From positions 1,970-65,969 of the forward strand of contig JANQNK010000002.1 of NCBI GenBank assembly GCA_028279595.1: a DNA stretch of 64,000 bases, read 5' to 3'. How positions within the stretch are numbered: the first letter of the stretch is position 1; every line of letters starts with the position of its first letter. The stretch is from Thermoplasmatota archaeon. GTDB taxonomy: Archaea; Thermoplasmatota; JAKEGO01. Positions 10,123 to 29,783 of this stretch are shown piece by piece. The notes below the pieces were generated by a model. The model was not told the DNA's origin, searched no databases, and was given only the letters and a program-made list of their open reading frames with translations. The position numbers and the translations under genes were made by a program.

Positions 10123-10971
10123 ATGTTCGGAATAGGAAGGAAGGTGAAAGCGAAGACACCATACATGATGCTCGGGTTTATGGTTGCGGGTCTTATGATC
10201 GGATCATTTAATGTAACAGCTGAGGGACCGATCCCGGACGATGATAATCCAATAGGATATCTCCACCTTGAGAATGAAGAATCAAACTTTGAAGAGAACG
10301 AAGAGGCATGGATTAATCAATTGATTTCTGATCCTGAATCAGTTGGAAGTCAGCATGTCGAAACAACATCTACTAGCCTTGAGTCTAAAGGATATTGGTT
10401 CTATGTTCGAGATAGTCCGGATGATGATGTAGATCTAGATAATGACTTGTATTTCTGTGAAACCAATTCTACATCGAATTTCACTGTTCATATCGAGTTC
10501 GAAAGAGGGGCTCCGGATGAACTTGAATTTAGATTATATAATTCTTCACCCCCAGATGTGGAAGTAATCGATGAAGTTATCCTTGGATATAATGAGGAGG
10601 GCATCTACAATTCAAGCTGGAATATCTCTGGTAAGAAAATAATCCCTGCGGGCAATCGACTTTATTTTATTTTATCATGGTACACACCAGATGCCGGACT
10701 TAACTCGTGGACAATTTTTCTCAATAATAAAAGTTATATTGAATTTCCTATCGCTATCGACTCGAATGATAATGGGATACCAGATTATCTAGAAGATGAA
10801 CCTGAGCCTCCCGGAGATCCAGATCCGGACCCCGACCCGAATGATTCGGACACTGACAATCAGAGACCAACAAGAGACAAGGATGGAAATCTGCTACCAG
10901 GATTCGGAATATCTTTATCCATTCTTGCAGTCGTTGTTACCGCGTTTCTAATTTCAAAGAATAATGTCTAA
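10123..10971 (+). CDS. Secreted acidic protein with PGF-CTERM-like C-terminal sorting signal
   Basis: Signal peptide from Met45 of the ORF (MFGIGRKVKAKTPYMMLGFMVAGLMIGSFNVTAEG). Asp/Pro linker EPEPPGDPDPDPDPNDSDTD, then LLPGFGISLSILAVVVTAFLISKNN. The start is uncertain (9991, 10072 or 10123). Confidence 0.6.
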   Translation: MFGIGRKVKAKTPYMMLGFMVAGLMIGSFNVTAEGPIPDDDNPIGYLHLENEESNFEENEEAWINQLISDPESVGSQHVETTSTSLESKGYWFYVRDSPDDDVDLDNDLYFCETNSTSNFTVHIEFERGAPDELEFRLYNSSPPDVEVIDEVILGYNEEGIYNSSWNISGKKIIPAGNRLYFILSWYTPDAGLNSWTIFLNNKSYIEFPIAIDSNDNGIPDYLEDEPEPPGDPDPDPDPNDSDTDNQRPTRDKDGNLLPGFGISLSILAVVVTAFLISKNNV

Positions 10972-11370
10972 TATGCTATGAAACTCAGGACGATGATTAG
11001 GAATTGATTCCCGCATAATGTCCTATTACAATTCGAGTATTGAAGTTGGAAGAGTGGTAGGGAGAACTTCTTGCGATCCCTCTACGTTCAGGCTCATTTA
11101 AACTAGAATTTTCACCTAGTATAGCTCGTTGAGATATCTGTCGGTTCCAGTCCGTTTCATTTTTCTTTTCACATTCATCACTTAAATTCCCCTTATCAAG
11201 CAAACATGATCATTATAGATCCACCGACTCCCATCAATATTCATATCATTCAATTCTCCTGGGCTCCAATATGGTCCTAGGAAATTCAAGGAATGAGGGT
11301 ATCATAACTAGATTGACCGGATTATTTTTTTCTACAGAATGTAAAATCTGCAGAAATTCTGTATGAATAT

Positions 11371-11437
11371 ATGAGGGGGCGTGCCTGATTCGGTATTCAC
11401 CTCCGTTGCGGATCTATTGTAATACCGGGGCACCCCC
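11371..11437. repeat. Long imperfect hairpin: GGGGGCGTGCC..CGGTATT / AATACCG GGGCACCCCC
   Basis: Complementary arms read directly. Lies in a roughly 1.15-kb stretch with no credible ORF. Confidence 0.4.
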
Positions 11438-11827
11438 AACTTTTCAAATATGGCAAATGGTATAACCTTCAAAATCATCAGCAGATTGGTTCAGGTAAGG
11501 ATTCGACAATGGTATTCTGACGAAGAGGTAACACGGCGATTCCATCTGGTAACATTTTTTCTTTGTAGAGAAGTAAATTTTTGTCCCACAATTGGTGAAA
11601 TTCTGATATGGCAAGGTCGATGACAAATCCTCATGGCGCGGAACTCATCACCGAAACCGTGTAATGGTCGGTTACCGATACCTCCGATGATGGTTGGCAT
11701 CTACACCCGAAGGTCCCACAGTCATCGAACCTTGCCTGAAGCACATCACATTGGTAGTAGTACCGTTTTATGACCTTATTTTTACAGCTCGATATTCGCA
11801 TCCCTGTCGATTACGATAATAATTTCA

Positions 11828-12357: not shown

Positions 12358-13080
12358 ATGGCGCAATCGAAGGTCCCAAAATCGGTAGACGAAGTTATCA
12401 AGGAAATCGAGTCGTTCGAAAAGGAAGTACAAAAGATCGGAAGACAAGCTTTCAAACAAGGAGAATATATACAAACGAAAATTCTGATCGAGTCCGCGAC
12501 CCGAATGAACACATTGAAGAAATCATTCAACGAGCTCGGAATGGAACTAAGCGATGTGTTCTCAGACGCGGAAGCTCAACTTAAGAACCTTCCTGCAGGA
12601 AAAACTCGTACGTCGACGAAACGTATACCACGCGGAAAGAAAACTCCGGAGGACGCATATCGAGAACCGATACTCAATGCACTCTCAGAACTCGGTGGGA
12701 AAGGAACTACATCAGAGGTCCTCGACAAGGTCTACGAACAGTTGAAAGACGTCCTAAATCAATTCGATAAACAACCAGTCCCCTCAGTACCTTCACAACA
12801 GAGGTGGCGACACACTGCGCAGATCGTCCGAAACAAGATGATGAATGAAGGCTTGGTCAAGAAGAACTCGCCTCGCGGTATTTGGGAAATTTCTACCGCC
12901 GGGACGAAGACGATCACACCGAATAAGTCCTCAAAGAAATCGTCTCAATCGAAGAAGAGCTCATCGTCGAAGAAATCGACGTCCAAACCTAAATCCAAGA
13001 CCTCTTCCAAGAAGCAGTCGTCTTCGAAGAAGTCCACGACTCTGGAAAAGACGGAATCGAAACCTGACGCGAAGAAGTAA
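12358..13080 (+). CDS. Coiled-coil plus Mrr_N-like winged-helix protein with Lys/Ser-rich basic tail (paralog 1)
   Basis: PILNALSELGGKGTTSEVLDKVYEQL...SQQRWRHTAQIVRNKMMNEGLVKKNSPRGIWEISTAG resembles the N-terminal wHTH of Mrr-type restriction proteins. Tail is SSKKSSQSKKSSSSKKSTSKPKSKTSSKK. Clear paralog at 24601-25224. Confidence 0.75.
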   Translation: MAQSKVPKSVDEVIKEIESFEKEVQKIGRQAFKQGEYIQTKILIESATRMNTLKKSFNELGMELSDVFSDAEAQLKNLPAGKTRTSTKRIPRGKKTPEDAYREPILNALSELGGKGTTSEVLDKVYEQLKDVLNQFDKQPVPSVPSQQRWRHTAQIVRNKMMNEGLVKKNSPRGIWEISTAGTKTITPNKSSKKSSQSKKSSSSKKSTSKPKSKTSSKKQSSSKKSTTLEKTESKPDAKK

Positions 13081-13743: not shown

Positions 13744-13808
13744 GTTTACTGTAAGAAACGTTGGTACATAATTGTAATATTACCGTTACAACCGGGGGGA
13801 AATTCCTC
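13744..13808 (+). repeat. Copy B of the island repeat family
   Basis: 19-mer identical to 2512-2530. Its interior aligns with 18254-18290 (AATTGTAATaTTACCG). GAAATTCCTC at 13799-13808. Abuts the stop of the 1374-aa gene. Confidence 0.8.
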
Positions 13809-13812
13809 AACC

Positions 13813-16800
13813 TCATGTTCTTCGTCGGGAATTCCAAAGAATGGCGGTAATAACAATAAAGATTGTCGGGAGAATCGCGATTTCAGGGATCTTTTCGGGA
13901 GAACTCGTTTCGACTGGATCTTCGTGAGGATATCTGTCCTCAGCATTGCCGGGACCGTCTATGGAGTATGTACCCGAACCGCTCCAATCGGACCAATAAT
14001 TCCCCTCGGTGATACCATCATCCCATTCATTGTGTGATGTATTGTCGTAAGCTTGGGACGATGCACCAGTATTGTTCGCGAAGTTATTATGGTGAACCTT
14101 CATTTGTGTTGACCCTGAAGAGTATATTCCATAATTGCCATTCCCGAATATCTCATTGAAGATAATGGTAATATTGTCAGAGGAGCTAATGAATAATCCG
14201 TAATCATCGTTGTTAGAGCAGGTATTGTTTGCTACATGAATTTTGACAGAGGAATTGTAATGGATACCAATGTAGTTATCAGACACGTTACAATTCTTGA
14301 TTGTATGGCCATATGAACCATTCGAATAAATTCCTTGAACGTTGTCAATTATCGTGCTATTAAAGATAGCGGCACTGTTATTCGTTAAGTTAATTCCTGC
14401 GCGGCTTCCGTTCCGGATCGTGATATGGCTGATATTAACATCTGAACCGGTTATTTCGATAACATTCCCGGTATTATTCCCATCAATGATCGTCTCTTCA
14501 GAACCATTGCCAACAATCGTTATTGATACGGGAATAACCAGGTTCTCTATGAATAATCCTTCATAAACTAATATCGTGTCACCTGCAGTTGCATTATCGA
14601 TTGCATCCTGAATAAATTGGTAATCTGCTCCCCCATCATCATCTACAGTGATGATTGAAGAACTATATATTCCTTCTATCCTAATTGGCCAACTATTACA
14701 GAACGAGAATGGTTGGCTTATTCCATCGTCTATGGTGGCACAGATGTAATGAGTACCATTCGTGACATTTGTTATATCCCATTCAATTGTACCAAATCTA
14801 TCGTTCTCCTCATGGTAACCTATTAGATTATCACCAGATTCTCCATCCGAGTATGTGAATGTGACATTGGCTATACTATCTTTGTCGCTCGCGTAGTATG
14901 AGATAGCTATAGTTTCTGATGCCATACGATTAACTGTCAATTGGTCGATATTTGGAATGAGGATCACATACGGCATATCATTTCCACCAACCTCGATATC
15001 AAGTTCATTTACCAGAGGATATCGATCTTTAGCAGGACTATCTCCATCGATGTGATATTTTTCTTCTCCAATACCATCGTCATCAGTATCCGTACCTGTG
15101 TAATCCGACCAATAGTTGCCACTCGATCCATAATCCCAGTCATTGCTGGAACTGTTCCCACCATCGTCCAATCCTTGTGCAGTTGCGTTGATCGAAATAA
15201 TGTTGTCAATGAAATTATTATGATGTATCATGCATCGAACGGTGAATCTATCCGCGGACACCCCATACCCGTGGTTACGACGCAATTCATTATCATAGAT
15301 TGATATTGTACGAGCCTCATCAAGAACGATACCTTCACCTTGATTATTAATGAATAAGTTATTCTGAATGATGAACCTCTTCGAGTCCATGATATCCAAT
15401 CCTATTGAATTATTGATAAAAGAACAATTCTTGACCATAAGTCCTTCCGAACTATAGCTCCGTAGACCTACTCCGATGTTGTCTGAAATGTTATTGTCAA
15501 TATATGTGTCGTCAACAGCATTTCGTGAGAGAATCGCTTCGTCCCAGTTATTCCTCATGATACAATTAACGAATGAATTCTCGAGAGTGTCCCTCAAGTA
15601 CAGGCTTCTTCTGCTTCCTGAAAGGTTCGAATTTATTACAAGGTTCCGAATACCTGTGTCCATAGAAAATGCATTACTTGAAGCGCTATGGATTTCACAT
15701 CCTGAGATTGTATTATTATCACCGTCGTTCATTGTCAATCCAACACTACTTGGATTATCTATCGTACAGTTGAATAGTGTCGAATTATCAACTCCTATCA
15801 TGTATACTGATCGCGCGGATACATTAACAAAATAGACGTTGGACGATTGAAACAGTCGGATATTCGCGGGTACTTCTACTTTCTTGGAGCTCTCAAAGAT
15901 AACGTTGTTGCAGTGAGCCATCATTATGTGCGGGCTTGCATTGAATTGCGCTCCATCGTAGGAGAAATAGGAGCAATTGACAACGATTATCTGTCCTACG
16001 TCGTTTGGTATTATAAATTCACTACTATTTAATTTGAAAAAAACCTGTTTTCCATTGACTGTATTATTAAAGATAAAGTGGGTTGTGAAGTGTTCGATAT
16101 CAGAACCCCAGAATTGTATGGAATCGTTCACGAGGGTACAATCAGTGACACGGGATCCCGTTGCAGAATTTATTAGGATTCCGCCACCAATTCCACTGTC
16201 GGAAACCGTACAGTTGACTATAGATGTTCTCTGACCCATAACACCGATCCCGGTCCCCGATGTAAAAGTAATATTACTATTGGTAATTGTTGTATTATCG
16301 CTTTTCGACCTGATTCCGGACAGGCAATGTTCAATCAGACAATTGTCAATGTAGGCCTCATTGGAGTCATCAAGCCTGATCGCATAATCCTCTATCTTTG
16401 AGAAAGTGCAATTGTCTACCTTCGTATCCGTGCAGTGTTCGAAGGTCAATCCCATTGGTAATTGGTCGAAACTTGATGATGATATAGTTACGTTATCTGA
16501 ATATACAACCTTCAATGTCTCGGTATAATTGAAGACACAATCATTGATATTTACATTTGAGCTACCTACGATGATAATTTGAGACACATCTGATTCGATT
16601 GAATATGATGACTCATTCTTGATGAAGATGATCGGTTTACCGTTAAGGGTGCAATTGGTAATCACATGTGAGTTATAATGTTGTACCTCGTTCCCTTTAA
16701 TCGAAATGAACTCATCGATAAACCTGCATCGCTCGATGCTAATTCCTATCTTATTGTATATTTCGAACCGTCCATGGAAATAATCGTTATACGTCCATTC

Positions 16801-17937
16801 GGAGGACTTGATCTTACAACCGATTACACTTGTACGATCACCAAAATGTCGAATGGCTTTGGAATTGTTTGAGATAACACACCTCTTAATTAAGATGTCA
16901 GGGACATCCCTAAGCCAAATCCCTTCCTCCGAATTTGAGAATATGTTGGAGCTGTATATTGACGAATATTGAGAATCACCTCTAAATTGAAACCCATTTT
17001 CATTCTGACTCAAGGTGCAATTATTGAATGTGTTATTCCATCCATCCCATACGGATATTCCAGACTCGGTATTATTGATTATTTGAGCTTCAGTGACATT
17101 GACGTTGTCACTCCCCCATACGTCAATCCCAACCCCATCATTATTGACGATAGTGCAACCGCGTACTACAACCCCGTCCGATCCCCTAAGGAATAGCGTT
17201 TCTGCTCCAATGATAGAATGACTAGATTTTGTGTTTCTAAGGGTTGAATTTTCAATTATGCAACTGTCAGTTCCCCAAACACCCCAAACATATATCGCAT
17301 TGTCTGTACAATTATCTATCACGCATGAATCAATCGTAGCATTGGCTGAAGTGATCATGATTCCAATACCGCTAATATCTTTAATCTGAGAGGCCCGAAT
17401 GTTGGTGTATTGACCGTTGATGCTGATACCAGCACTACAATTAGTGACAACAGAATCAGAGATCGTGTTGTGCGTGCGAGTGTTATTAATTCGAATTCCT
17501 TGTGTACTATTGAAGATACGACAGTCCTCAATTAGGTTTCCATGTGATGCAATCCTTAGGCCGCGATTAGTCTTGGAACCAGTGATCCCAAAAAATGAAA
17601 TAGAACAATTACTAGCAGAAATCAGGAGACCATCACCATCGCCACCACTTCTAATAATCGATTCAGTCGTACCATTTCCAATTAGGAGAACACGTTTGTA
17701 AACATCGATCTCATCGATAGAGTCATCGGGAGAATAATTTCCCGCGAAAACGCGGATTGTATCACCGATCACTGCGTTTTGAATCCCATCTTGAATTGTC
17801 CCATACGGATTATCTTCTGCCCCGGTGGCAGACATGTTTCCCTCATTATCATCATCAACGTAAATTGTCGCACCTTGAGTATTGATCCCTATCAATACTA
17901 ATGCTAGAATCGCTAATGCAAAGATGGTCCCTTTCAT
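13813..17937 (-). CDS. Giant (1374 aa) two-module parallel beta-helix (NosD-like) surface protein with signal peptide and C-terminal TM anchor
   Basis: MKGTIFALAILALVLIGINTQGA signal. Module starts TIYVDDDNEG..GTIQDGIQNAVIGDTIRVFAGNY and IITVDDDGGADYQFIQDAIDNATAGDTILVYEGLF. Module ends GNYWSDYTGTDTDDDGIGEEKYHI..DRYPL and GNYWSDWSGSGTYSIDG..DRYPH. C-terminal ILPTIFIVITAILW. Confidence 0.85.
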   Translation of the reverse strand: MKGTIFALAILALVLIGINTQGATIYVDDDNEGNMSATGAEDNPYGTIQDGIQNAVIGDTIRVFAGNYSPDDSIDEIDVYKRVLLIGNGTTESIIRSGGDGDGLLISASNCSISFFGITGSKTNRGLRIASHGNLIEDCRIFNSTQGIRINNTRTHNTISDSVVTNCSAGISINGQYTNIRASQIKDISGIGIMITSANATIDSCVIDNCTDNAIYVWGVWGTDSCIIENSTLRNTKSSHSIIGAETLFLRGSDGVVVRGCTIVNNDGVGIDVWGSDNVNVTEAQIINNTESGISVWDGWNNTFNNCTLSQNENGFQFRGDSQYSSIYSSNIFSNSEEGIWLRDVPDILIKRCVISNNSKAIRHFGDRTSVIGCKIKSSEWTYNDYFHGRFEIYNKIGISIERCRFIDEFISIKGNEVQHYNSHVITNCTLNGKPIIFIKNESSYSIESDVSQIIIVGSSNVNINDCVFNYTETLKVVYSDNVTISSSSFDQLPMGLTFEHCTDTKVDNCTFSKIEDYAIRLDDSNEAYIDNCLIEHCLSGIRSKSDNTTITNSNITFTSGTGIGVMGQRTSIVNCTVSDSGIGGGILINSATGSRVTDCTLVNDSIQFWGSDIEHFTTHFIFNNTVNGKQVFFKLNSSEFIIPNDVGQIIVVNCSYFSYDGAQFNASPHIMMAHCNNVIFESSKKVEVPANIRLFQSSNVYFVNVSARSVYMIGVDNSTLFNCTIDNPSSVGLTMNDGDNNTISGCEIHSASSNAFSMDTGIRNLVINSNLSGSRRSLYLRDTLENSFVNCIMRNNWDEAILSRNAVDDTYIDNNISDNIGVGLRSYSSEGLMVKNCSFINNSIGLDIMDSKRFIIQNNLFINNQGEGIVLDEARTISIYDNELRRNHGYGVSADRFTVRCMIHHNNFIDNIISINATAQGLDDGGNSSSNDWDYGSSGNYWSDYTGTDTDDDGIGEEKYHIDGDSPAKDRYPLVNELDIEVGGNDMPYVILIPNIDQLTVNRMASETIAISYYASDKDSIANVTFTYSDGESGDNLIGYHEENDRFGTIEWDITNVTNGTHYICATIDDGISQPFSFCNSWPIRIEGIYSSSIITVDDDGGADYQFIQDAIDNATAGDTILVYEGLFIENLVIPVSITIVGNGSEETIIDGNNTGNVIEITGSDVNISHITIRNGSRAGINLTNNSAAIFNSTIIDNVQGIYSNGSYGHTIKNCNVSDNYIGIHYNSSVKIHVANNTCSNNDDYGLFISSSDNITIIFNEIFGNGNYGIYSSGSTQMKVHHNNFANNTGASSQAYDNTSHNEWDDGITEGNYWSDWSGSGTYSIDGPGNAEDRYPHEDPVETSSPEKIPEIAILPTIFIVITAILWNSRRRT

Positions 17938-18157: not shown

Positions 18158-18242
18158 TTCGGTGCCATAATCCCTCTCGCCGCACTAACATTTCTTTGAA
18201 GAACTCGTATTCAATCGACCACTGTGTTTACGTTGATGATTT

Positions 18243-18328
18243 CTGTAAGAAACACTGATACGGAATTGTAATTTTACCGGTAAAATCACGCCAATTTCCC
18301 CCCCTTCTCGTAGGATCGTTTCTTACAG
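18243..18328. repeat. 86-bp unit bounded by 11-bp inverted copies of the family core (CTGTAAGAAAC ... GTTTCTTACAG)
   Basis: Arms at 18243-18253 and 18318-18328. Interior carries TTTTACCGGTAAAA and a C7 run. The left part aligns with copy B. Confidence 0.75.
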
Positions 18329-18409: not shown

Positions 18410-19729
18410 CTAGTAGTTATTAACAATCCACTGTTTTAGAAGTTGTTGTTTTTGTCCAATTTTCCCTTTTGCAATCTCGATATTTATATCATTGGGTAAG
18501 GTAGATAATATTGGGTGAATTGCTTTTAAATAGGTACTTCCTACGTTGATAAATACATCGGAATAGTCTTTGTTCTGCAGTATCTTGTGAAACTGACCTC
18601 TTATTTGGTCTATAAAGGTTTCAACATTTTCAAGGGACAATTTTTCATCATACGGTGAAATCACCTTCGTTGGTTCAATTAAACCATATTTCGATGAAAT
18701 AATAAATATATCGAATCCATCTCTATTAGAAAATGACCAAAGATGTTTCCTTAAAATTTTAAACATGATCCCATCGTATATTTTAATTGCCTGAGCCTTT
18801 TTCAATGAGGGATGTTTTGTTTTTGAGCATGAAATAATAATCATTTTATTATTGGGGTTCCAATACTGATTCCTTGAAAGGATATTAGCGTTAATATAAT
18901 CTCTAATTTGATAATATCGCTTTTTTTGAGCTGGGACATTTCCACGCTTTGGGGACGATCCTTGATATTGAAAAATCCACCCTTTATAGTCACTTCCAAA
19001 TACAGAGTATCGTCTGAATAAAATATGTCGTTTTGGAGAATAGCAACCAAGCGCGAAGAGATTAATATTGGGATAGTTATCACGAATTTCTGAGAGTATT
19101 AATCTTAAATTATCCTCATTTCTCACGTTAACGTATCTTACACTATTAACTCTTTTTACAAGCATTCCCCCTATTCCGATATATGAATATCCCAATTCAA
19201 TTAATTCTGAGACACAGTCGATATATTCATTCACTGATTTTCCTTGGGCGACTCCAAGTAATTTAAATGAATATGAGTTGTCTTGATATTCTTCGATTGC
19301 TTTTGTTGCACTTATAAGGGTTTGAGTACGATCCTTTATAATATCAATAATTACTCCAAAATCAATTTTCAGCTTTTCGTACTCTTGAAATAAATATGTA
19401 TAATCTAAATTTGAATATCCTTCTTTCGTAAAAACTGCAGAGTCGCAAATTGTGAATATTTTCCTTTGAAATTCTAGTCCTGCCCGACATTGATTAATAT
19501 CAATTTTATAAGGACATGGATTATCTTCAATGATGCTACACCGTTGTGGATTGACACATGGGAAAACTTTGAATGCTTCTTTAAAATTCTTATGAGTATT
19601 TACATGTGTCATTAATCCAATATGTTTGTTCTCTGGTATCTTAATTCCACTGATTATTCTTAAGGATGCTTGTCTATCTGCAACTAAGTAAGGAGTGAAT
19701 TTTTTTACATTGAGATTTGGATTAGTCAT
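18410..19729 (-). CDS. TGT/DpdA-like transglycosylase TIM-barrel domain fused to a C-terminal SCSxxK...PYD (DUF6884-like) domain
   Basis: TGT-fold landmarks in the right order: ICDSAVF (cf. DSGGFQ), LLGVAQGKS (cf. GIVQGG), YIGIGGMLV (cf. GYAIGGL), LFALGCYSP...VFGSDYKGW (cf. LLGVG.P...DMFDCV). C-terminus has IIISCSKTKH...IKIYDG..F...IFIISSKYGLIEP...ISPYDEKL. Met3 at 19729 gives an ATGA overlap with the upstream stop; ATG 19735 is also possible. Confidence 0.7.
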   Translation of the reverse strand: MTNPNLNVKKFTPYLVADRQASLRIISGIKIPENKHIGLMTHVNTHKNFKEAFKVFPCVNPQRCSIIEDNPCPYKIDINQCRAGLEFQRKIFTICDSAVFTKEGYSNLDYTYLFQEYEKLKIDFGVIIDIIKDRTQTLISATKAIEEYQDNSYSFKLLGVAQGKSVNEYIDCVSELIELGYSYIGIGGMLVKRVNSVRYVNVRNEDNLRLILSEIRDNYPNINLFALGCYSPKRHILFRRYSVFGSDYKGWIFQYQGSSPKRGNVPAQKKRYYQIRDYINANILSRNQYWNPNNKMIIISCSKTKHPSLKKAQAIKIYDGIMFKILRKHLWSFSNRDGFDIFIISSKYGLIEPTKVISPYDEKLSLENVETFIDQIRGQFHKILQNKDYSDVFINVGSTYLKAIHPILSTLPNDINIEIAKGKIGQKQQLLKQWIVNNY

Positions 19730-20730
19730 AGGCAATCATCTGAAGGAAAATCAAATATAAATGTTTGTCCACAACCTTGAGAATTGTCACGATAACGAGA
19801 GGGTAAACAGTAACCTATTTGAATATTATCGTTCTTTCTGACTAGTCTATATATCGATAAGATATCTGGTTTTGGTCCAATTGGACTAAACACTAAATTG
19901 TAATTATCAATGGAAATATTTTCCTCGTCAGCAAATACATCGAGAATACTCTTAAATTCGTTATGAAATTGCCATGGGTGAAAGCCACTTATTTCTTTTG
20001 ATGTAACAAATTGATTCGCTAATAAGTCTTTATTATTTCGGTAGACAATGTCTTTTTGATCACTCCAATTTGGAATGCTCGTTACGGGAATTAATGCTAA
20101 GGTTCGATATGGTTTATAATTTCGAAAAATTGACATCGCTCGATTTCCTTGGAAACCAAGGTATATTAACAAGATAGAATCGCGGTGCCTGACCTTTCCA
20201 TGAAATGTAGGTACAGAAAATATCTTATGGGTTCCCATGACAAAATCATTTTCAGCAGAGCTATATTCTCCAACCATTGAATATGTAAAAATGGTTTTAT
20301 CTAGATCTATAATATCCAATGTTATTAATGCACAATATTTAGGAATACAAGATAAATCAACGATTAAAGGATATGAGAATGAGCATTCATGAATAACTTG
20401 ACGAAATTTATGATACTGATACAAGTTTAATGAAATTATTGAAAATTCGATTCCAAATGAATTCAATAATTGTTGTATTAACCTCTTATTTTGTTGGTAT
20501 TTTCTAATTGTCTCCTTGTCTTTCACATCAAGTGAAGAGATATTTAGTAATGATTGCTGATAATTTGTAAAGTCAATTAACCAACATTCCCTGATTTGAT
20601 ATTGAGTAATAATTGTTCTTATCGAGTGATACGACCGGTCCGCAAAACTAATAGCACAAATTAAATCAACCATATCATTTTTATATTTATTACTTTCTTG
20701 AATTAACTGTCTTGATGGAGTTATTCTCAT
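19726..20730 (-). CDS. Hypothetical protein (334 aa), third gene of the operon; alpha/beta Rossmann-like pattern, no motif recognised
   Basis: ORF with ATGA overlap to the upstream SIR2 gene (tcat at 20727-20730). Alternating hydrophobic strands: LICAISF, LIVDLSCIP, ILLIYLGFQGN, TLALIPV, LVFSPIGPKP. Confidence 0.75.
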   Translation of the reverse strand: MRITPSRQLIQESNKYKNDMVDLICAISFADRSYHSIRTIITQYQIRECWLIDFTNYQQSLLNISSLDVKDKETIRKYQQNKRLIQQLLNSFGIEFSIISLNLYQYHKFRQVIHECSFSYPLIVDLSCIPKYCALITLDIIDLDKTIFTYSMVGEYSSAENDFVMGTHKIFSVPTFHGKVRHRDSILLIYLGFQGNRAMSIFRNYKPYRTLALIPVTSIPNWSDQKDIVYRNNKDLLANQFVTSKEISGFHPWQFHNEFKSILDVFADEENISIDNYNLVFSPIGPKPDILSIYRLVRKNDNIQIGYCLPSRYRDNSQGCGQTFIFDFPSDDCL

Positions 20731-23247: not shown

Positions 23248-24204
23248 TTATTTTTCGTAAATTGCCAAAACGTTCATATCAGGTTCAGATTTCATTGTGC
23301 CAATTATCCGGATTCCATGTTTATATCCACGTTTAATAAAATTGTAGGCAAATACTCCAGTATCGTAATCACCATTCGGACAAACGTGTAAATGTAATGT
23401 GTCTCCCGAATTCGTTAAAGGTACACGATAATCAATCCATGAAATTCGGCCATTTTCTGATGCAGAATTTTCTACCACTCGAATAGCGTCATCCTCGTTG
23501 AAATGATCGTTAAACCATTGCCAATATTCTTTCCTCTTCTTTCGTACTGAGGCAGTCATATTTCCGGACTCATAGGTTGGAGGTTTACACCGGTGATCAG
23601 ACGAAAGCAATTTATCATAAAGGAGCTCAATTTTCCCATTTTCAAACTCACAAGCGGTAGGTATTAATTTTGTCTCAGGAACATCATTTGTTTTCGATTC
23701 CGATTGACTTGGTAAATTTAAAAACACCAATGACCTTGGAACTGAAATTATACTATTTGGATCTCTCCATTGTTTCTCATCTGTGCCGTTTTCGACGATG
23801 AATAATCTTTCAGGATAGCTTGATAAATAATGTAATGATAAATTTATCAACTGACGATATGGGTTATTTACTGGTTGAAGTCGCACATTATATCCAGATT
23901 TTGCGGTTGTTCCTTCACCTACTTCTTTACCTTTCTCAGCTGAGATGCTTGGTTTAATGAATGTGAATATTCCGCTCAACAGGCTCCCGATTTCAGTTGT
24001 CGTTACAGAGCTGGAAAGATTTAATTTTTTTCGTATTTGTTTAACATTGGATTCGGATAACTGAAACTCATAAAACTCCTGATCAAAATCAGGTCTTACG
24101 ATGGCATCGTAGAAATTACTGATTTGAGGCTTATCAATAAAACATGGTGCGTCAGCCATCCAACCCAGAGAGAGTATCTTATTATTGATGAGATCCTTCT
24201 TCAT
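23248..24204 (-). CDS. Hypothetical protein (about 318 aa), first gene of the operon
   Basis: Long ORF. I prefer ATG 24204 (MKKDLINN), which is preceded by AGGGGGA and an AT-rich TATA-like stretch. The ORF-track start at 24243 is a TTG. No family recognised. Confidence 0.7.
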   Translation of the reverse strand: MKKDLINNKILSLGWMADAPCFIDKPQISNFYDAIVRPDFDQEFYEFQLSESNVKQIRKKLNLSSSVTTTEIGSLLSGIFTFIKPSISAEKGKEVGEGTTAKSGYNVRLQPVNNPYRQLINLSLHYLSSYPERLFIVENGTDEKQWRDPNSIISVPRSLVFLNLPSQSESKTNDVPETKLIPTACEFENGKIELLYDKLLSSDHRCKPPTYESGNMTASVRKKRKEYWQWFNDHFNEDDAIRVVENSASENGRISWIDYRVPLTNSGDTLHLHVCPNGDYDTGVFAYNFIKRGYKHGIRIIGTMKSEPDMNVLAIYEK

Positions 24205-24386
24205 TTCATCAATCCCCCTATGTAACCCATATATATGTATCAATTATAAATATTCCTTAGTGCTACGAGTATATATACAATCAATATCCGAATAATATTC
24301 ATCGCTATTATTCTTGGAGAGATATCTTTTTATTTTTTCTTAGTCTGCTTTGCGTAATCATTCGAGATATACAAATTTACTAGATA

Positions 24387-24457: not shown

Positions 24458-24600
24458 TTGATGGAATATAGTAAAAACGCTGATCTTGAACGTCCGTCCG
24501 TATGTGACAATTCGAAAATGTTAGTAAATACATGTAATTTCTTTGTATAGTGATTATTATTATATATTATCCACAATCATTCTGTATTTGGGAACAGGTG

Positions 24601-25224
24601 ATGACTTTGGGTAGTACTAAGAATATGTTCGGAGAAGTGACATCCTCGGTTGATGAGTTGATGAAAAAAGCGAAAGAGAGCTCGAAACATGCCTTCAAGG
24701 TAGGAGATTACAGAGCAACAACAACTCTATCAGAAAATATCCAAAGAATGAAGCAGCTCAAGAAAAACATGGCTGAGATCCACAAGGAATTCAATAATAT
24801 CGAACACTCTGTCACATCAATACAAATAATTGAAAAACCTAGGACACGTGGTTCAAACCTTCGCGGTAAAGTGACTACCGGAAAGGATTTTATTACCCCA
24901 ATTCTCAAGTCCATCAATGAACTGGGCGGTTCTGTAAAGACAAGTGACGTTCTTAAGAAGGTAAAACAGAAGATGAGTTTTAAACTCAATGAATTTGACA
25001 AGCAACCTCTACCATCGAATCCCTCAATGCCACGATGGAAACAAACAGCACAATCAATCCGAGTTCAAATGGTAAATGATGGCCTTCTGAAGAAGGATTC
25101 TCCAAGAGGTGTCTGGGAGATCTCAGCGCAAGGACGTAAAGCGATCGAATCCGATCAGAAGAAATCGGTAAAACCGAAATCCAAATCTCAGCTTAAAGGT
25201 AACACAAAGGCGAATTCAAAGTAA
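24601..25224 (+). CDS. Coiled-coil plus Mrr_N-like winged-helix protein with basic tail (paralog 2)
   Basis: PILKSINELGGSVKTSDVLKKVKQKM...PSMPRWKQTAQSIRVQMVNDGLLKKDSPRGVWEISAQG aligns with 12358-13080. ATG 24601 is preceded by AGGTGA. Confidence 0.75.
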   Translation: MTLGSTKNMFGEVTSSVDELMKKAKESSKHAFKVGDYRATTTLSENIQRMKQLKKNMAEIHKEFNNIEHSVTSIQIIEKPRTRGSNLRGKVTTGKDFITPILKSINELGGSVKTSDVLKKVKQKMSFKLNEFDKQPLPSNPSMPRWKQTAQSIRVQMVNDGLLKKDSPRGVWEISAQGRKAIESDQKKSVKPKSKSQLKGNTKANSK

Positions 25225-26259: not shown

Positions 26260-26980
26260 TCTTGTAATTATATTTTAATTAATATATAAACTTTGTTAAT
26301 TAAATTCGGATGATGCATGAGAATTTTACTTCCAAATCTATCGAAAACGTGCGTAATTCCGGGATTTAGGGGGTATTTTCCAAGAAAAGGGCGTAATAAT
26401 GTATATCATTGTTTACATATCTAGTTATTTAGTTTGTAAACAATGCATACATGTTTACAAAAGTATTATATACTACATGTCCTCGACTGTATATTATTGG
26501 AAAAGACGCTATAATACCTCACTGATACTTCGAAATTATCGTATCCGACAGCTTGAGATGTAGATATTCAAATTTCCATATAGAATAATGCTATAATGCT
26601 TCGGTTACTTTAATACGTTATAACCCTTCCACAATCGTTCATATAGTACTTTTATATGGGAGAATAATCTATGGAAGAAATCGTTATCCAGAGATCAATA
26701 TTCAATTCTTCCAATCCATAAGCTATATTGAAGATCTACGATACTACATCATGACTCTTATTTGAAACGATCTCAAGATTTTACTGTATTACTGAGAATT
26801 AGTTGTGTGATATGCAATTTCTGCTACTATGTCTATATTATTCGTTCAGAACACGTACCAGAGGTACCCCTCCCCCTCCCCGTGTTAGAATTACCCTCAA
26901 CTATGCGTAAAGAGGCATGTCATGGGGTACCCATAGAGGTACCGATTTAAGATTGGAATTGAACTTGGGACCATGCCCTT

Positions 26981-27052
26981 CGAGGCACCCTCCTAGGCAT
27001 CTCCCTAGGCACCTCCCTAAGCACCCTCCTAGGCACCCCCCTAGGCACCCCC
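26981..27052. repeat. Six tandem copies of a 12-bp unit, CTAGGCACCYCC
   Basis: Units at 26981, 26993, 27005, 27017, 27029 and 27041, read directly. A GC-rich array in AT-rich non-coding DNA, 90 bp past the integrase stop. Confidence 0.9.
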
Positions 27053-27142
27053 CACACCCACCTTGAACATGTTAGTTGTCACCTGAATGTGCTGAACCGA
27101 GGTCCATGAAGGAAGCGCATTAATCGCTTTCTCGGAAGGCAT

Positions 27143-28090
27143 CTAGATTCTTAGTTTAGGGATGTAGGAGAGGTACATTCGACGAAGCTCGGCGGCGTCG
27201 ATGTGATGGTATATGTCAATTGCCTCTGCACGGCGGTCGCCTCTAAGCTCCTTGACATGCTCTCTCGGCATTCCGGACCGGATAAGATGCGTCGTGAACC
27301 AATGTCGGAGGCAGTGAGGGCCGAAGTGATCCTCAAATTTGTCGGAGTCGGGATTGTGGAAACCGAGCTTAATTGCCGGATTAACGATGGCTTTCCATGC
27401 CGCGTTTCGGGAGAGTCGTGATCCTGTCTGGTAACTCACGAAGAGAGCATCGGTGGTAGTCCCGAGTTTATCACGGACTCTCATCCACCGTTGGAGTGCC
27501 CTCGAAGCCTCGTCGTCGAAGAAGACTCGCCGGTTGGACCGCTTCGGGGTGGGTTTGAGCATAGCGGATCCTTCGGTCCAATTGATATCGCTGACGTCGA
27601 GCTTGAGCATCTCACCTCGTCGTATACCGGTCTTCGCGAGGAGCAGTATCATCGCCTTGTCACGGGGATCCATTACGGCACTCACGAGAGCGGAGAGCTG
27701 TTCAACTGACAGTAACTGACGTGTCGATTGCTCATGGCCGTTCTTATAGCGCTTCAAATAGCGCTTTCGGAACGGAAGAACGAGGTTATTGTCGACATAC
27801 TCCTCGAACATGAGGTAATCGTAGAACGACGAGAGGACCGAGAAGTAGTTCTCAAGTGTCTTGAACTTGACCTTACGCTCCTCCATAAGGTAAGATAGGA
27901 AATCTCGGAGAGTGTCCATACTAAGGTCCAACGGAGAAATTTCGTGACGATTGAGGTATTGAATGAAAATGTTCAGACTCGTTTGATAGTGGCGGATCGA
28001 TTCCATGGTCATATTCTGCAACTTGCAGTCTTCGATGTATGCCTCTAGCAGGGCATCAGGATCCATTTTCTTGCCCTTCTTCTTTGCCAT
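27143..28090 (-). CDS. Tyrosine recombinase / phage-type integrase (XerC/D-like)
   Basis: LLLAKTGIRRGEM (catalytic Arg), HCLRHWFTTHL (H-x-x-R), LRGDRRAEAIDIYHH (catalytic Tyr). N-terminal SAM-like domain. ATG 28090 overlaps the upstream TGA by 1 nt. Confidence 0.9.
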   Translation of the reverse strand: MAKKKGKKMDPDALLEAYIEDCKLQNMTMESIRHYQTSLNIFIQYLNRHEISPLDLSMDTLRDFLSYLMEERKVKFKTLENYFSVLSSFYDYLMFEEYVDNNLVLPFRKRYLKRYKNGHEQSTRQLLSVEQLSALVSAVMDPRDKAMILLLAKTGIRRGEMLKLDVSDINWTEGSAMLKPTPKRSNRRVFFDDEASRALQRWMRVRDKLGTTTDALFVSYQTGSRLSRNAAWKAIVNPAIKLGFHNPDSDKFEDHFGPHCLRHWFTTHLIRSGMPREHVKELRGDRRAEAIDIYHHIDAAELRRMYLSYIPKLRI

Positions 28091-28635
28091 CACGAACCCC
28101 TCCAACGCCATTTCTTGCCGAGACATTCAACGACACCTATCTGTTCTAGCATCTCTAGCTGGATCGAGATCGCATTAATGAAATCCGATTGTGTTGACTT
28201 TATACCAAGCTTCCGCAGGATGTCGCCTTGAGTAAGAGGTTTGGTTGACGACCTGAGTATCTCTATTAGTTCCGGATCGAATGGCCTCGGTCCCTCGAAG
28301 TCATTGTCGAGGAATGGTGCAGAGCGATAACGTTTCAACTCGGTGTCGAGAGAATCACTGAGATTGCGTAGCATACGATTCTCTTGTTCAAGTTCCTTGA
28401 CCATCTCGTCCCTGATCTGAATCTGTTCAAGTAGTTCGAGCCGAGAAGGTCCTTGGTCCTCATCAACCTCGGTATTGAGTGAGTCAATCACGCGTTGAAT
28501 GATGAACTTCGAGATAGACATGTTCTCGTTAGTGGCACGAGCCTTCCACTCTTCTGCTAACTCGACTGATGGTAAATACACATACAAGGCACGTTGTTTT
28601 ATTGTCTCAGTCTTCCCTTTATTTGGTTTCCCCAT
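28090..28635 (-). CDS. Ribbon-helix-helix / coiled-coil / winged-helix protein (candidate element regulator or excision factor)
   Basis: N-terminus QRALYVYLPSVELAEEWKARATNENMSISKFIIQRVIDSL (RHH pattern). Central coiled coil. C-terminus LTQGDILRKLGIKSTQSDFINAISIQLEMLEQIGVVE. Translationally coupled to the integrase. Confidence 0.65.
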   Translation of the reverse strand: MGKPNKGKTETIKQRALYVYLPSVELAEEWKARATNENMSISKFIIQRVIDSLNTEVDEDQGPSRLELLEQIQIRDEMVKELEQENRMLRNLSDSLDTELKRYRSAPFLDNDFEGPRPFDPELIEILRSSTKPLTQGDILRKLGIKSTQSDFINAISIQLEMLEQIGVVECLGKKWRWRGS

Positions 28636-28686: not shown

Positions 28687-28774
28687 TGGTGCGGGGGAAG
28701 GGATTTGAACCCTCGGACTCCTTCGAGAACAGATCTTGAGTCTGCCGCCTTTGGCCAGGCTGGGCTACCCCCGC
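28687..28774 (-). tRNA. tRNA-Leu (anticodon CAA), class II, genomically encoded CCA
   Basis: Manual fold: acceptor GCGGGGG/CCCCCGC, anticodon stem GCAGA/TCTGT, loop CTCAAGA, 14-nt variable arm with CTC/GAG stem, T arm GAGGG-TTCAAAT-CCCTT, discriminator A73, then CCA. Confidence 0.85.
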
Positions 28775-28820: not shown

Positions 28821-29783
28821 TCAAGATTCTCGATGATGGGCCAGTATCGAAAGGACCTTGGGGACCGTCTGCCTCGTCCGGTCGATCCTCACACCCATTA
28901 TCAGGTGCTTCGGGGAATACCTCTTGGAGACCTCGGCGCAGATCCTGTCCACGTGGCCGACGGTCAGGTCCATGCCACCGATGATGTGTACGAGCGCTGC
29001 GTCTATGTCACTCTGCGAAAGCAGGTCGATTCCGCCCTCGGATACGGGCTGGCCCGCTTCCTGCTGTTCCATCAGCGGGAACTCCGAGCAGGAGACGAGG
29101 GCCTCGCGGCCGTAACCGAGGACGGTCCGGAGGTCGGCAAGATCGAGATTTATCAAGGAAGGGAACATGAAGATCTCGAGGATCCGGGAGAGAAGGTCTC
29201 CGACGTCGTCCGAGTCCAGGACGATTATTCCCCTGTAATGGGAACTCACGGTCCCCTGGTCGAACGCGCCCTTCTGCGCTGCGAGCAATGTGAACGGCAC
29301 TTCGGCGAGTTTCGCCACCTCACCGAGGCGGATGGCCTTGCCCTCCTGGTCCGACGAGAGCGCCATCACGATAAGCATATCGATGTCATCCATAACACAG
29401 ACCAGTTCGTCGTCAGTAGCGCTGTCCAAACATACCCCAGTGATCCCTTTGTGGGCGTCCTCCGACTGGAGGTCGCAGTAGAGATTGAGCGATAAGGAGG
29501 TGAGACTGCACATCCTGTCCGGAGCTTCCGGACCGAGACCGAACAGCACAATCCTAGGCTTCCCAGACATGCGCATCTCCCCGTCGTGGCTGGTTTCCGT
29601 TTTAAAAAAAACGGAGCCGCTGTTCGGTGAATGGAGGCTCTTGCAGCGAAGAGGATGCAGAGGCTTGAGCGTTAGGACGTCGTATGGGGGCATAACGACG
29701 TTAAATCCGCTCTCGCGGATCCACCGAACAGCGGCTTGGCGGGCACTAAGACCCACCAGAGGTGACGCTTCATCCCATCCCAT
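28821..29783 (-). CDS. Degenerate FtsZ/tubulin-like protein lacking the GGGTGxG nucleotide-binding signature
   Basis: INLDLADLRTVL (cf. FtsZ T7 loop NLDFAD) and ALVHIIGGMDLTVGHV (cf. ITGG.DLTL.E) are retained. The signature position reads MLIVMALSSDQEGKA. The start may instead be Met70 (29576). Confidence 0.55.
   Translation of the reverse strand: MGWDEASPLVGLSARQAAVRWIRESGFNVVMPPYDVLTLKPLHPLRCKSLHSPNSGSVFFKTETSHDGEMRMSGKPRIVLFGLGPEAPDRMCSLTSLSLNLYCDLQSEDAHKGITGVCLDSATDDELVCVMDDIDMLIVMALSSDQEGKAIRLGEVAKLAEVPFTLLAAQKGAFDQGTVSSHYRGIIVLDSDDVGDLLSRILEIFMFPSLINLDLADLRTVLGYGREALVSCSEFPLMEQQEAGQPVSEGGIDLLSQSDIDAALVHIIGGMDLTVGHVDRICAEVSKRYSPKHLIMGVRIDRTRQTVPKVLSILAHHRES

Follow-up and report, generated by a model that had tools for sequence, protein, structure and literature searches.

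The 64,000-nt stretch of DNA analysed here (the window) belongs to a contig of a Thermoplasmatota archaeon (GenBank assembly GCA_028279595.1, contig JANQNK010000002.1), and EF-1alpha and Orc1/Cdc6 genes near the operon described below (NCBIfam) point to an archaeal host. At its centre of interest lies a minus-strand gene whose product fuses a barrel like that of tRNA-guanine transglycosylases (TGTs) to a DUF6884 domain. The minus-strand open reading frame (ORF) at 18410..19735 was confirmed and encodes 441 aa counted from TTG, and the public gene call (P0001) gives 439 aa. Because an ATG at 19729 shares the letters ATGA with the stop codon of the gene upstream, 18410-19729 (439 aa) is the likelier fusion gene than the TTG-started ORF; residue numbers refer to the 439-aa protein and rise by 2 for the 441-aa ORF. 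The fusion gene is the last of four co-directional genes, tightly packed or overlapping, which encode in order a 331-aa protein, a SIR2-ATPase, a 334-aa CARF-like protein and the fusion protein (Table 1).

An earlier note, made from the letters of this stretch, had recognized in the N-terminal part the motifs DS..F, GVAQG, IGIGG and LG...GSD in the order found in TGTs. All of them are present and conserved in an alignment of 51 full-length homologues, in which D18, R19, D96, S97, F100, D129, G159, V160, Q162, G163, G187, G188, L190, L227, G228, D247, K249, G250 and W251 are invariant (51/51). Comparison of the N-domain profile with bacterial DpdA, represented by genuine dpdA genes taken from plasmids, gave an hhalign probability of 99.1% (E=4e-18, 239 columns) and paired D96 of the fusion with D95 of DpdA, D129 with D130, Q162 with H181 and D247 with D256. 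D95 serves DpdA as general acid/base and D256 as nucleophile; mutation of either abolishes exchange. The two catalytic Asp positions that the note had picked out are thus intact in a proper alignment, both being invariant and paired with the catalytic residues of DpdA. Judged by residue correspondence, the invariant Asp/Gln/Gly-Gly pocket probably represents the guanine/7-deazaguanine pocket of TGT and DpdA.

Further comparisons pointed to the same relative. The family profile, searched against PDB sequences, matched 7UI4 (the Salmonella DNA preQ0 insertase DpdA) best, at 2e-7, with bacterial TGTs at ~1.3; a PDB search with the single fusion sequence returned nothing useful. For the AlphaFold model of the fusion protein (pLDDT 90.4), the top Foldseek match against PDB was again 7UI4 (E=1.7e-10); dozens of Zymomonas TGT entries came next, at ~1e-8, and every one of these matches had probability 1.00. 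The protein also matched the DpdA models of PADLOC (8.7e-11) and NCBIfam (NF041059, 5.2e-10). E. coli Tgt aligned weakly with the N-domain profile (hhalign probability 45%, 76 columns), and no match at E<=0.1 was obtained with the Pfam TGT, PUA and TGT C-terminal domains or the NCBIfam archaeosine-TGT models. The protein therefore lacks the C-terminal Zn/PUA modules of archaeal TGT (ArcTGT), as the note had stated, and assignment to a housekeeping ArcTGT was rejected. Membership of DpdA4 was likewise rejected, as its domain PF20314 (DUF6610) had no match in the Pfam scan at E<=0.1. Placed by these profile and fold comparisons, the N-terminal domain is a TGT-superfamily fold forming a distinct, very divergent branch, the nearest characterised relative of which is DpdA.

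The C-terminal domain matched Pfam DUF6884 (PF21818) with 63.3 bits (E=3.4e-17; gathering threshold 30) over profile positions 2-135 of 135. The family that the note had named is thus correct; its description as uncharacterised holds only in part, since DpdC is distantly related. The motifs SCSxxK, IYDG, IISSKYGL and PYD are present and conserved among the 51 homologues: C301 and K305 (C301-S-K-T-K305) each occur in 50/51, S345 and G349 of IISSKYGL are invariant, and Y318 and G320 of IYDG and Y360 of PYD are invariant or nearly so. According to the Pfam curators, DUF6884 has a DNA-binding fold of the YaaA type in which a base-flipping site is predicted, and its motifs are CxxxK and LSAxxG; both motifs, the second as an LSAxxG-type variant, are found in the fusion protein. 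With 29.8 bits, the Pfam match to YaaA itself barely exceeds the cut-off of 29.6. Residues 297-435 also matched PDC-M57A, an uncharacterised PADLOC candidate (E=8.7e-14); no other PDC-M57 component appeared among the PADLOC matches listed for the scanned partners, and we found no mention of PDC-M57 in the literature.

DpdC converts dPreQ0-DNA to dADG-DNA on its own, independently of DpdA and DpdB; it was earlier classed as DUF328/YaaA, and a preprint gives DUF6884 as its domain. We recovered two genuine DpdC proteins (PADLOC DpdC, 6e-142 and 4e-63), both of which score slightly under the Pfam DUF6884 threshold. With their frames extended upstream, they carry the motifs TCTNGK or ICAQQK, DLY(K/A)G, (I/V)(L/I)SAGLGL and VP(A)Y, the counterparts of which in the fusion protein are SCSKTK, IYDG, IISSKYGL and SPYD. 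The C-domain profile aligned with the two proteins at an hhalign probability of 91% (E=9e-7, 98 columns). This profile retrieves DpdC and not DpdA, and the N-domain profile DpdA and not DpdC. With a DpdA-like N-domain and a DpdC-related C-domain, the fusion is predicted from sequence to unite the two chemical steps of Dpd modification, each represented by a distant relative of the enzyme concerned.

The fusion protein has 193 word-indexed homologues; at E<=1e-30, 82 representative clusters match it. A search of 185,579 species genomes yielded 47 loci, about half of them archaeal and half bacterial; the archaeal carriers include Methanosarcinales, Methanoperedens, Thermoplasmata, Archaeoglobus, Bathyarchaeia, Heimdallarchaeota and Halobacteria. 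Clustering covered the ORFs of every locus, and 49 non-redundant loci were compared. Both domains occur in 46 of the 49, fused in 26 and as separate genes of one operon in 20, so that their pairing is near-obligate. No match was found when the fusion N-domain was searched by tblastn against 50,697 phage records; bacterial DpdA retrieved just one phage record in the same kind of search. In the literature we found no description of a DpdA-DpdC-like fusion or of its operons.

While the pair of TGT-like and DUF6884 domains is constant across loci, its partner modules are swapped. The most frequent set, in 33 loci, consists of a NurA-like protein (~610 aa) and HerA (PADLOC 5e-92). The Pfam NurA match is weak, yet it was the sole or top match in 9/9 NurA-like examples tested; the NurA-like families C2 and C7 share no significant mutual similarity and both match Pfam NurA weakly and consistently. 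The window represents another type, with a SIR2-ORC/CDC6-like ATPase (~830 aa) and a 334-aa CARF-like protein, which occurs in 7/49 loci. Five further loci, seeded from the 334-aa protein, all have a TGT-like gene and DUF6884, the TGT-like gene being profile-confirmed in four of the five. The two sets can also meet. On a JGI metagenome contig (L057:581-9194), one co-directional five-gene operon encodes in order a NurA-like protein (606 aa), HerA (625 aa), a SIR2-ORC/CDC6 ATPase (836 aa), a CARF-like protein (345 aa) and a TGT-DUF6884 protein (397 aa), and in the cultured Methanolobus tindarius both sets flank a single fusion gene. Among the rarer partners are helicases: a DpdJ-like one in L018 (6.5e-40), with presumably another in L021, which is organised similarly, and in L011 a DruE-like one that has a PLD domain.

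In two loci, L014 (5760-11305) and L025 (294-9942), the DISARM genes DrmA-DrmB-DrmC lie directly upstream of the pair on the same strand (PADLOC for L025: DrmA 1e-77, DrmB 1e-24, DrmC 1e-25). In class 2 DISARM, a methyltransferase follows DrmABC and the DrmE position precedes DrmA. By this gene order, the pair occupies the methyltransferase slot of class 2 DISARM in both loci. No N6/N4 or C5 methyltransferase motifs were found within 10 kb of the DISARM-like loci, and three of their flanking genes gave no methyltransferase match against PDB sequences. The constant pair, its swapped effectors and its place in the methyltransferase slot therefore point to a self-marking component, for which a constant module with varied nuclease, helicase and NADase partners is the expected pattern. 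The window itself has no Drm genes, and the putative mark would differ from that of DISARM in being made by base exchange rather than methylation. As a separate observation, L025, from a Heimdallarchaeote, has an unassigned 761-aa gene before DrmA, in the class 2 position of DrmE, and a RING-finger protein gene after the cluster (10163-11671).

In the window operon, the SIR2-ATPase and CARF-like genes are conserved neighbours of the pair in related loci, and the SIR2-ATPase is presumed to be the sensor/effector of the system. The AlphaFold model of the 334-aa protein (pLDDT 86) has two Rossmann-like domains, and Foldseek aligned it with the CARF domains of Sso2081, Card1, Can1 and Csm6 as well as with tandem universal stress proteins. 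A homologue of the 331-aa protein occupies the same position at one other locus, L036 (Bryobacteraceae).

Genes of 7-deazaguanine metabolism recur near the pair and hint at its substrate: Q_salvage (PF10343) is part of the operon in L013 and its neighbour in L059 and L063, and a canonical QueC gene is directly upstream of the SIR2 gene in L063. Neither QueC/D/E nor DpdB is conserved across the loci. Archaea make preQ0 for archaeosine. Apart from these clues, a pair of genes for a small DNA_pol_B_thumb protein and Q_salvage adjoins the SIR2/CARF-type systems on two unrelated metagenomic contigs (L059:11189-12747 and L063:10112-11684), and L063 also encodes an MFS transporter. On a Salinigranum marinum plasmid (L055, NZ_CP100464.1, 106699-124857), a different haloarchaeal TGT-like cluster encodes a 739-aa 'TGT', a second TGT of 344 aa, a BREX-type ATPase, an HNH endonuclease and Csa3 next to queC, folE, queE and a queD-like gene. 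It seems to be a further Dpd-like system of archaea, equipped with its own preQ0 pathway.

Building on the domain identities, the fold, the catalytic residues and the gene linkage described above, we propose a substrate, a product, a target nucleic acid and a way in which the mark would be read. We consider it probable, at roughly 60%, that the fusion protein is a DpdB-independent module that marks DNA with a 7-deazaguanine and serves a SIR2/ATPase/CARF effector. One polypeptide would perform both chemical steps of a Dpd-type DNA modification. In the first, the barrel would flip guanine out of DNA and, with Asp96 as the general acid/base, break the glycosidic bond by way of a covalent Asp247-deoxyribose intermediate; it would then insert a 7-deazaguanine, most likely preQ0 from a presumed host archaeosine pathway. 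In the second, the DUF6884 domain, as a minimal relative of DpdC, would convert the inserted nitrile in situ, probably via a thioimidate on Cys301, to the amide (dADG) or possibly to the amidine (dG+), the latter by analogy with archaeal QueF-like chemistry. The mark would label the host's own DNA, and the SIR2-ATPase with the tandem-CARF protein would answer unmarked invader DNA by NAD+ depletion; at other loci, NurA-HerA, DISARM DrmABC or DpdJ/DruE-type helicases would replace this module. The suggestion of the earlier note that the protein may be a DNA base-exchange enzyme rather than a tRNA enzyme is supported by DpdA as nearest relative in profile and fold, by the matching active site and by the absence of ArcTGT features.

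Several observations weigh against this proposal. The barrel is only 16% identical to DpdA, a strong divergence, and NF041059 covers residues 135-200 alone with 38.7 bits, far from its curated cut-off of 200. The barrel also stops ~40 residues past D247, where DUF6884 follows, and the canonical TGT/DpdA Zn site is absent; DpdA carries CQCNIC where the fusion barrel ends. The low score and the missing CxCxxC...H site, together with the lack of DpdB, led us to reject membership of bacterial DpdA. Four Cys residues in a loop of the barrel (C58, C64, C72 and C81) are present in ~70-80% of homologues and were jointly lost in seven; we infer that this loop is a putative structural metal site, relocated and standing in for the canonical C-terminal Zn site. 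Likewise, the PADLOC DpdC models reach only E=0.008 and 0.029 with the fusion protein, the C-domain of which has ~140 aa against 319 positions in the PADLOC DpdC model and ~320 and 310 aa in the recovered DpdC proteins, so that the full-length DpdC architecture is absent. Alone among the 51 homologues, the window protein has Ala98 (19436-19438) beside the catalytic Asp, giving DSA where the others have DSG. It is also the only one with S346 (18692-18694) in the LSAKYG motif, a position at which 44/51 have Ala. The two changes may be neutral or may signal an altered activity.

Other objections concern DpdB, the incoming base and the partner module. Bacterial DpdA requires the ATPase DpdB, for which neither the window nor the ORFs of loci L001-L055 gave a match. 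QueC, QueD and QueE were not detectable across the 64-kb window either, which agrees with the statement of the note that the island has no preQ0 biosynthesis genes and at the same time leaves the incoming base without a local source. One carrier, moreover, belongs to the Gracilibacteria (L045), a group usually poor in biosynthesis. Finally, the SIR2/CARF partner suggests signalling or abortive infection, and to our knowledge no SIR2/CARF system depends on a DNA mark.

Other explanations were weighed against the same data. The barrel could be an effector, a glycosylase or transglycosylase acting on invader DNA that removes guanine or viral camouflage 7-deazaguanine and leaves abasic or covalent lesions, which DUF6884 would bind or process and NurA-HerA or helicase-nuclease partners would use to degrade the DNA. 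Such a role would suit the B. subtilis DUF6884 member YfjM, which was picked up for its binding to abasic and RNA-base lesions, the DNA binding of YaaA, and partners (NurA-HerA, PLD, helicases) that process damaged or nicked DNA, and simple excision requires neither DpdB nor preQ0 genes. We nevertheless regard it as unlikely: in the DISARM-like loci the nuclease slot is filled by DrmC and it is the methyltransferase slot that is vacant, the QueC and Q_salvage neighbours imply a supply of incoming base, the nearest characterised relatives of both domains are modification enzymes, and a guanine glycosylase free of regulation would poison its host. Less likely again is a signalling role, in which the pair would make or handle a small-molecule or protein-linked 7-deazaguanine whose product the CARF-like protein senses to switch on the SIR2 NADase. 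Its model is the TGT-like Cap10 of type IV CBASS, which works with the QueC-like Cap9, and the window offers a 334-aa CARF-like partner without an effector domain; SIR2 effectors are typically activated by a ligand or trigger, and QueC is directly upstream in L063. The operon, however, has no CD-NTase or cyclase, most loci lack the CARF partner (33 are of the NurA-HerA type) while the TGT/DUF6884 pair stays constant, DUF6884, YaaA and DpdC act on or bind DNA, and the DISARM, DpdJ and DruE contexts are DNA-centred.

A housekeeping or repair function, either as a divergent ArcTGT acting on tRNA or as a YaaA-like oxidative-damage factor placed in a defence island by chance, appears very improbable. 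Databases do name the homologues 'peroxide stress protein YaaA' or 'DUF328', and the TGT fold is familiar chiefly from tRNA enzymes; but no Pfam TGT, PUA or ArcTGT model scores, the YaaA match is marginal, the family is rare and patchy in archaea and bacteria, and the gene lies on a low-GC integrase island and overlaps defence-type genes. Its operons are moreover conserved across phyla, on which ground chance co-location in a defence island was rejected. DNA marking by the fusion module thus remains our preferred reading.

Among known systems, DpdA (7UI4) and DpdC of Salmonella Montevideo are most similar, with the same two superfamilies in the same pairing: a barrel with an aligned acid/base Asp, base-binding Asp, Gln/His and nucleophile Asp, and a DUF6884/YaaA-type domain with CxxxK, LY.G, LSAxxGL and PY motifs. 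The Dpd genes and the fusion gene both lie in mobile defence islands, and some loci of the fusion family also have DpdJ-like helicases and PLD nucleases. In contrast to Dpd, the domains here form one 439-aa chain with other partner modules and no DpdB, the barrel lacks the large Ins8 insertion with its CxCxxC Zn site and has a four-Cys loop elsewhere, and the short DpdC-like part and the barrel score far under family cut-offs. This would be Dpd-type modification in a new form: single chain, DpdB-free and with new partners. The described DpdA groups comprise bDpdA and the viral DpdA1-4. The viral proteins are TGT-superfamily DNA transglycosylases that likewise work without DpdB, and the fusion model had fold matches to several viral TGT/DpdA-type proteins, from Mycobacterium phage Bella96, Vibrio phage nt-1, Cellulophaga phiST and Sulfolobales and Acidianus rod-shaped viruses; the viral DpdA genes lie in anti-restriction clusters carrying preQ0 genes, whereas the fusion gene is cellular and sits in defence operons.

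The SIR2 NADase and HerA translocase modules of SIR2-HerA (Nezha) also accompany the fusion family, HerA being found for example in L002 and L057. In the window, by contrast, the SIR2 protein also contains an ORC/CDC6-like ATPase and has a CARF-like protein as its partner, and no HerA or NurA-like ORF (clusters C1, C2 and C7) was found at 8-30 kb, so membership of SIR2-HerA was rejected. A published BREX-related HerA system (BRC) recruits a TGT as a proposed DNA marker; its components are PglZ, BrxC-like, STAND and GNAT proteins, with explicitly no DpdB or DpdC homologue. Like many loci of the fusion family, BRC combines HerA with a TGT, and it differs in lacking a DpdC relative. ArcTGT shares the superfamily fold and the presumed substrate base preQ0; it is universal, whereas the fusion gene is island-borne and patchy and its product is without the PUA and C-terminal domains and the Zn site of ArcTGT.

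Table 1 Features of the fusion-gene operon and its island. Positions are those of the window; residue numbers refer to the 439-aa protein.
Feature	Position	Strand	Basis or remark
DpdA-like/DpdC-like fusion protein gene, 439 aa	18410..19729	-	ATG at 19729; mechanical ORF extends to TTG 19735
TGT-superfamily (beta/alpha)8 barrel, aa 1 to ~288, nearest DpdA	18866..19729	-	DpdA models, profile, structure model
Active-site codons	D96 19442-19444, D129 19343-19345, Q162 19244-19246, D247 18989-18991	-	
Four-Cys cluster C58, C64, C72, C81, loop preceding DS motif	19487..19558	-	Conservation; metal role putative
DUF6884 (YaaA/DpdC-like) domain, aa 297-433	18431..18841	-	C301 at 18827-18829, K305 at 18815-18817; LSAxxG-type I343-S-S-K-Y-G349
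Tandem CARF-like protein, 334 aa, without effector domain	19726..20730	-	Stop overlaps fusion-gene start; PADLOC CARF6 4e-21
SIR2 + ORC/CDC6-like P-loop ATPase, 833 aa	20727..23228	-	Pfam SIR2_2 1.4e-26, ORC-CDC6-like 1.5e-45; PADLOC ThsA-type SIR2 domain
331-aa protein without detectable family, first in co-directional cluster	23248..24243	-	19 bp upstream of SIR2 gene
Tyrosine recombinase (integrase) of low-GC island	27143..28126	-	Pfam Phage_integrase 2.3e-28
tRNA-Leu(CAA), likely integration site at island boundary	28687..28774	-	

The operon lies in a region (~9-27 kb of the window) with a GC content of 32-40%, against ~60% elsewhere, and the integrase gene adjoins the tRNA-Leu gene. These features partly bear out the mobile island described in the note; a repeat search of the window found no second att copy of the tRNA-Leu end. 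Tandem repeats with a period of 12 nt (GCACCCTCCTAG-like) fill 26973-27053, at the GC jump and ~90 nt past the end of the integrase gene; here the repeat finder reported five overlapping 33-nt copies at 12-nt spacing. A 19-nt motif, GTTTACTGTAAGAAACGTT, occurs at 2512-2530, 13744-13762 and 18238-18256 (two exact copies and one 79% identical), every copy just 3' of a gene end and one of them ~150 nt beyond the fusion-gene stop; the motif may serve the island specifically, as a terminator or regulatory element.

Two paralogous small proteins with a C-terminal Mrr_N winged helix, 43% identical, are encoded at 12358-13080 (+) and 24550-25224 (+), the latter gene being divergent from the four-gene operon. 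The restriction enzyme Mrr carries Mrr_N at its N-terminus, where the domain may aid recognition of modified DNA, and the island proteins could be readers or regulators. Much of the region is filled by genes for three very large secreted or surface proteins (13813-17937, 4306-6675 and 6912-9242, all on the minus strand): one of 1374 aa with repeated NxS/T sequons and a hydrophobic anchor at the C-terminus, one that joins a NosD/beta-helix part to HTH domains, and one with CarboxypepD_reg repeats. Just outside the island, a 320-aa protein (28821-29783, minus strand) shows a weak resemblance to the C-terminal portion of FtsZ (32 bits with TIGR00065, the cut-off of which is 295) and may be a divergent tubulin-family protein.

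If DNA marking by the fusion module is correct, archaea would have their first predicted cellular system of 7-deazaguanine DNA modification, and the fusion protein would be a minimal single-chain deazaguanine DNA writer without an ATPase partner. It would link a DNA mark to SIR2/CARF-type effectors, a coupling previously undescribed. For systems such as DISARM, it would also mean that the 'self' mark can come from DNA transglycosylation instead of methylation. A wider generalization, to which we would give somewhat less than even odds, is that archaea and scattered bacteria self-mark their chromosomes with dADG or dG+ through a DpdB-free DpdA-DpdC module, an interchangeable label read by unrelated effectors, the SIR2-ATPase/CARF module of the window among them; NAD+-depleting abortive infection would then depend on a DNA base modification. 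The proposal gives DUF6884, a widespread domain of unknown function, a biochemically testable role, and a cultured carrier exists in Methanolobus tindarius DSM 2278, in which both effector modules flank one fusion gene.

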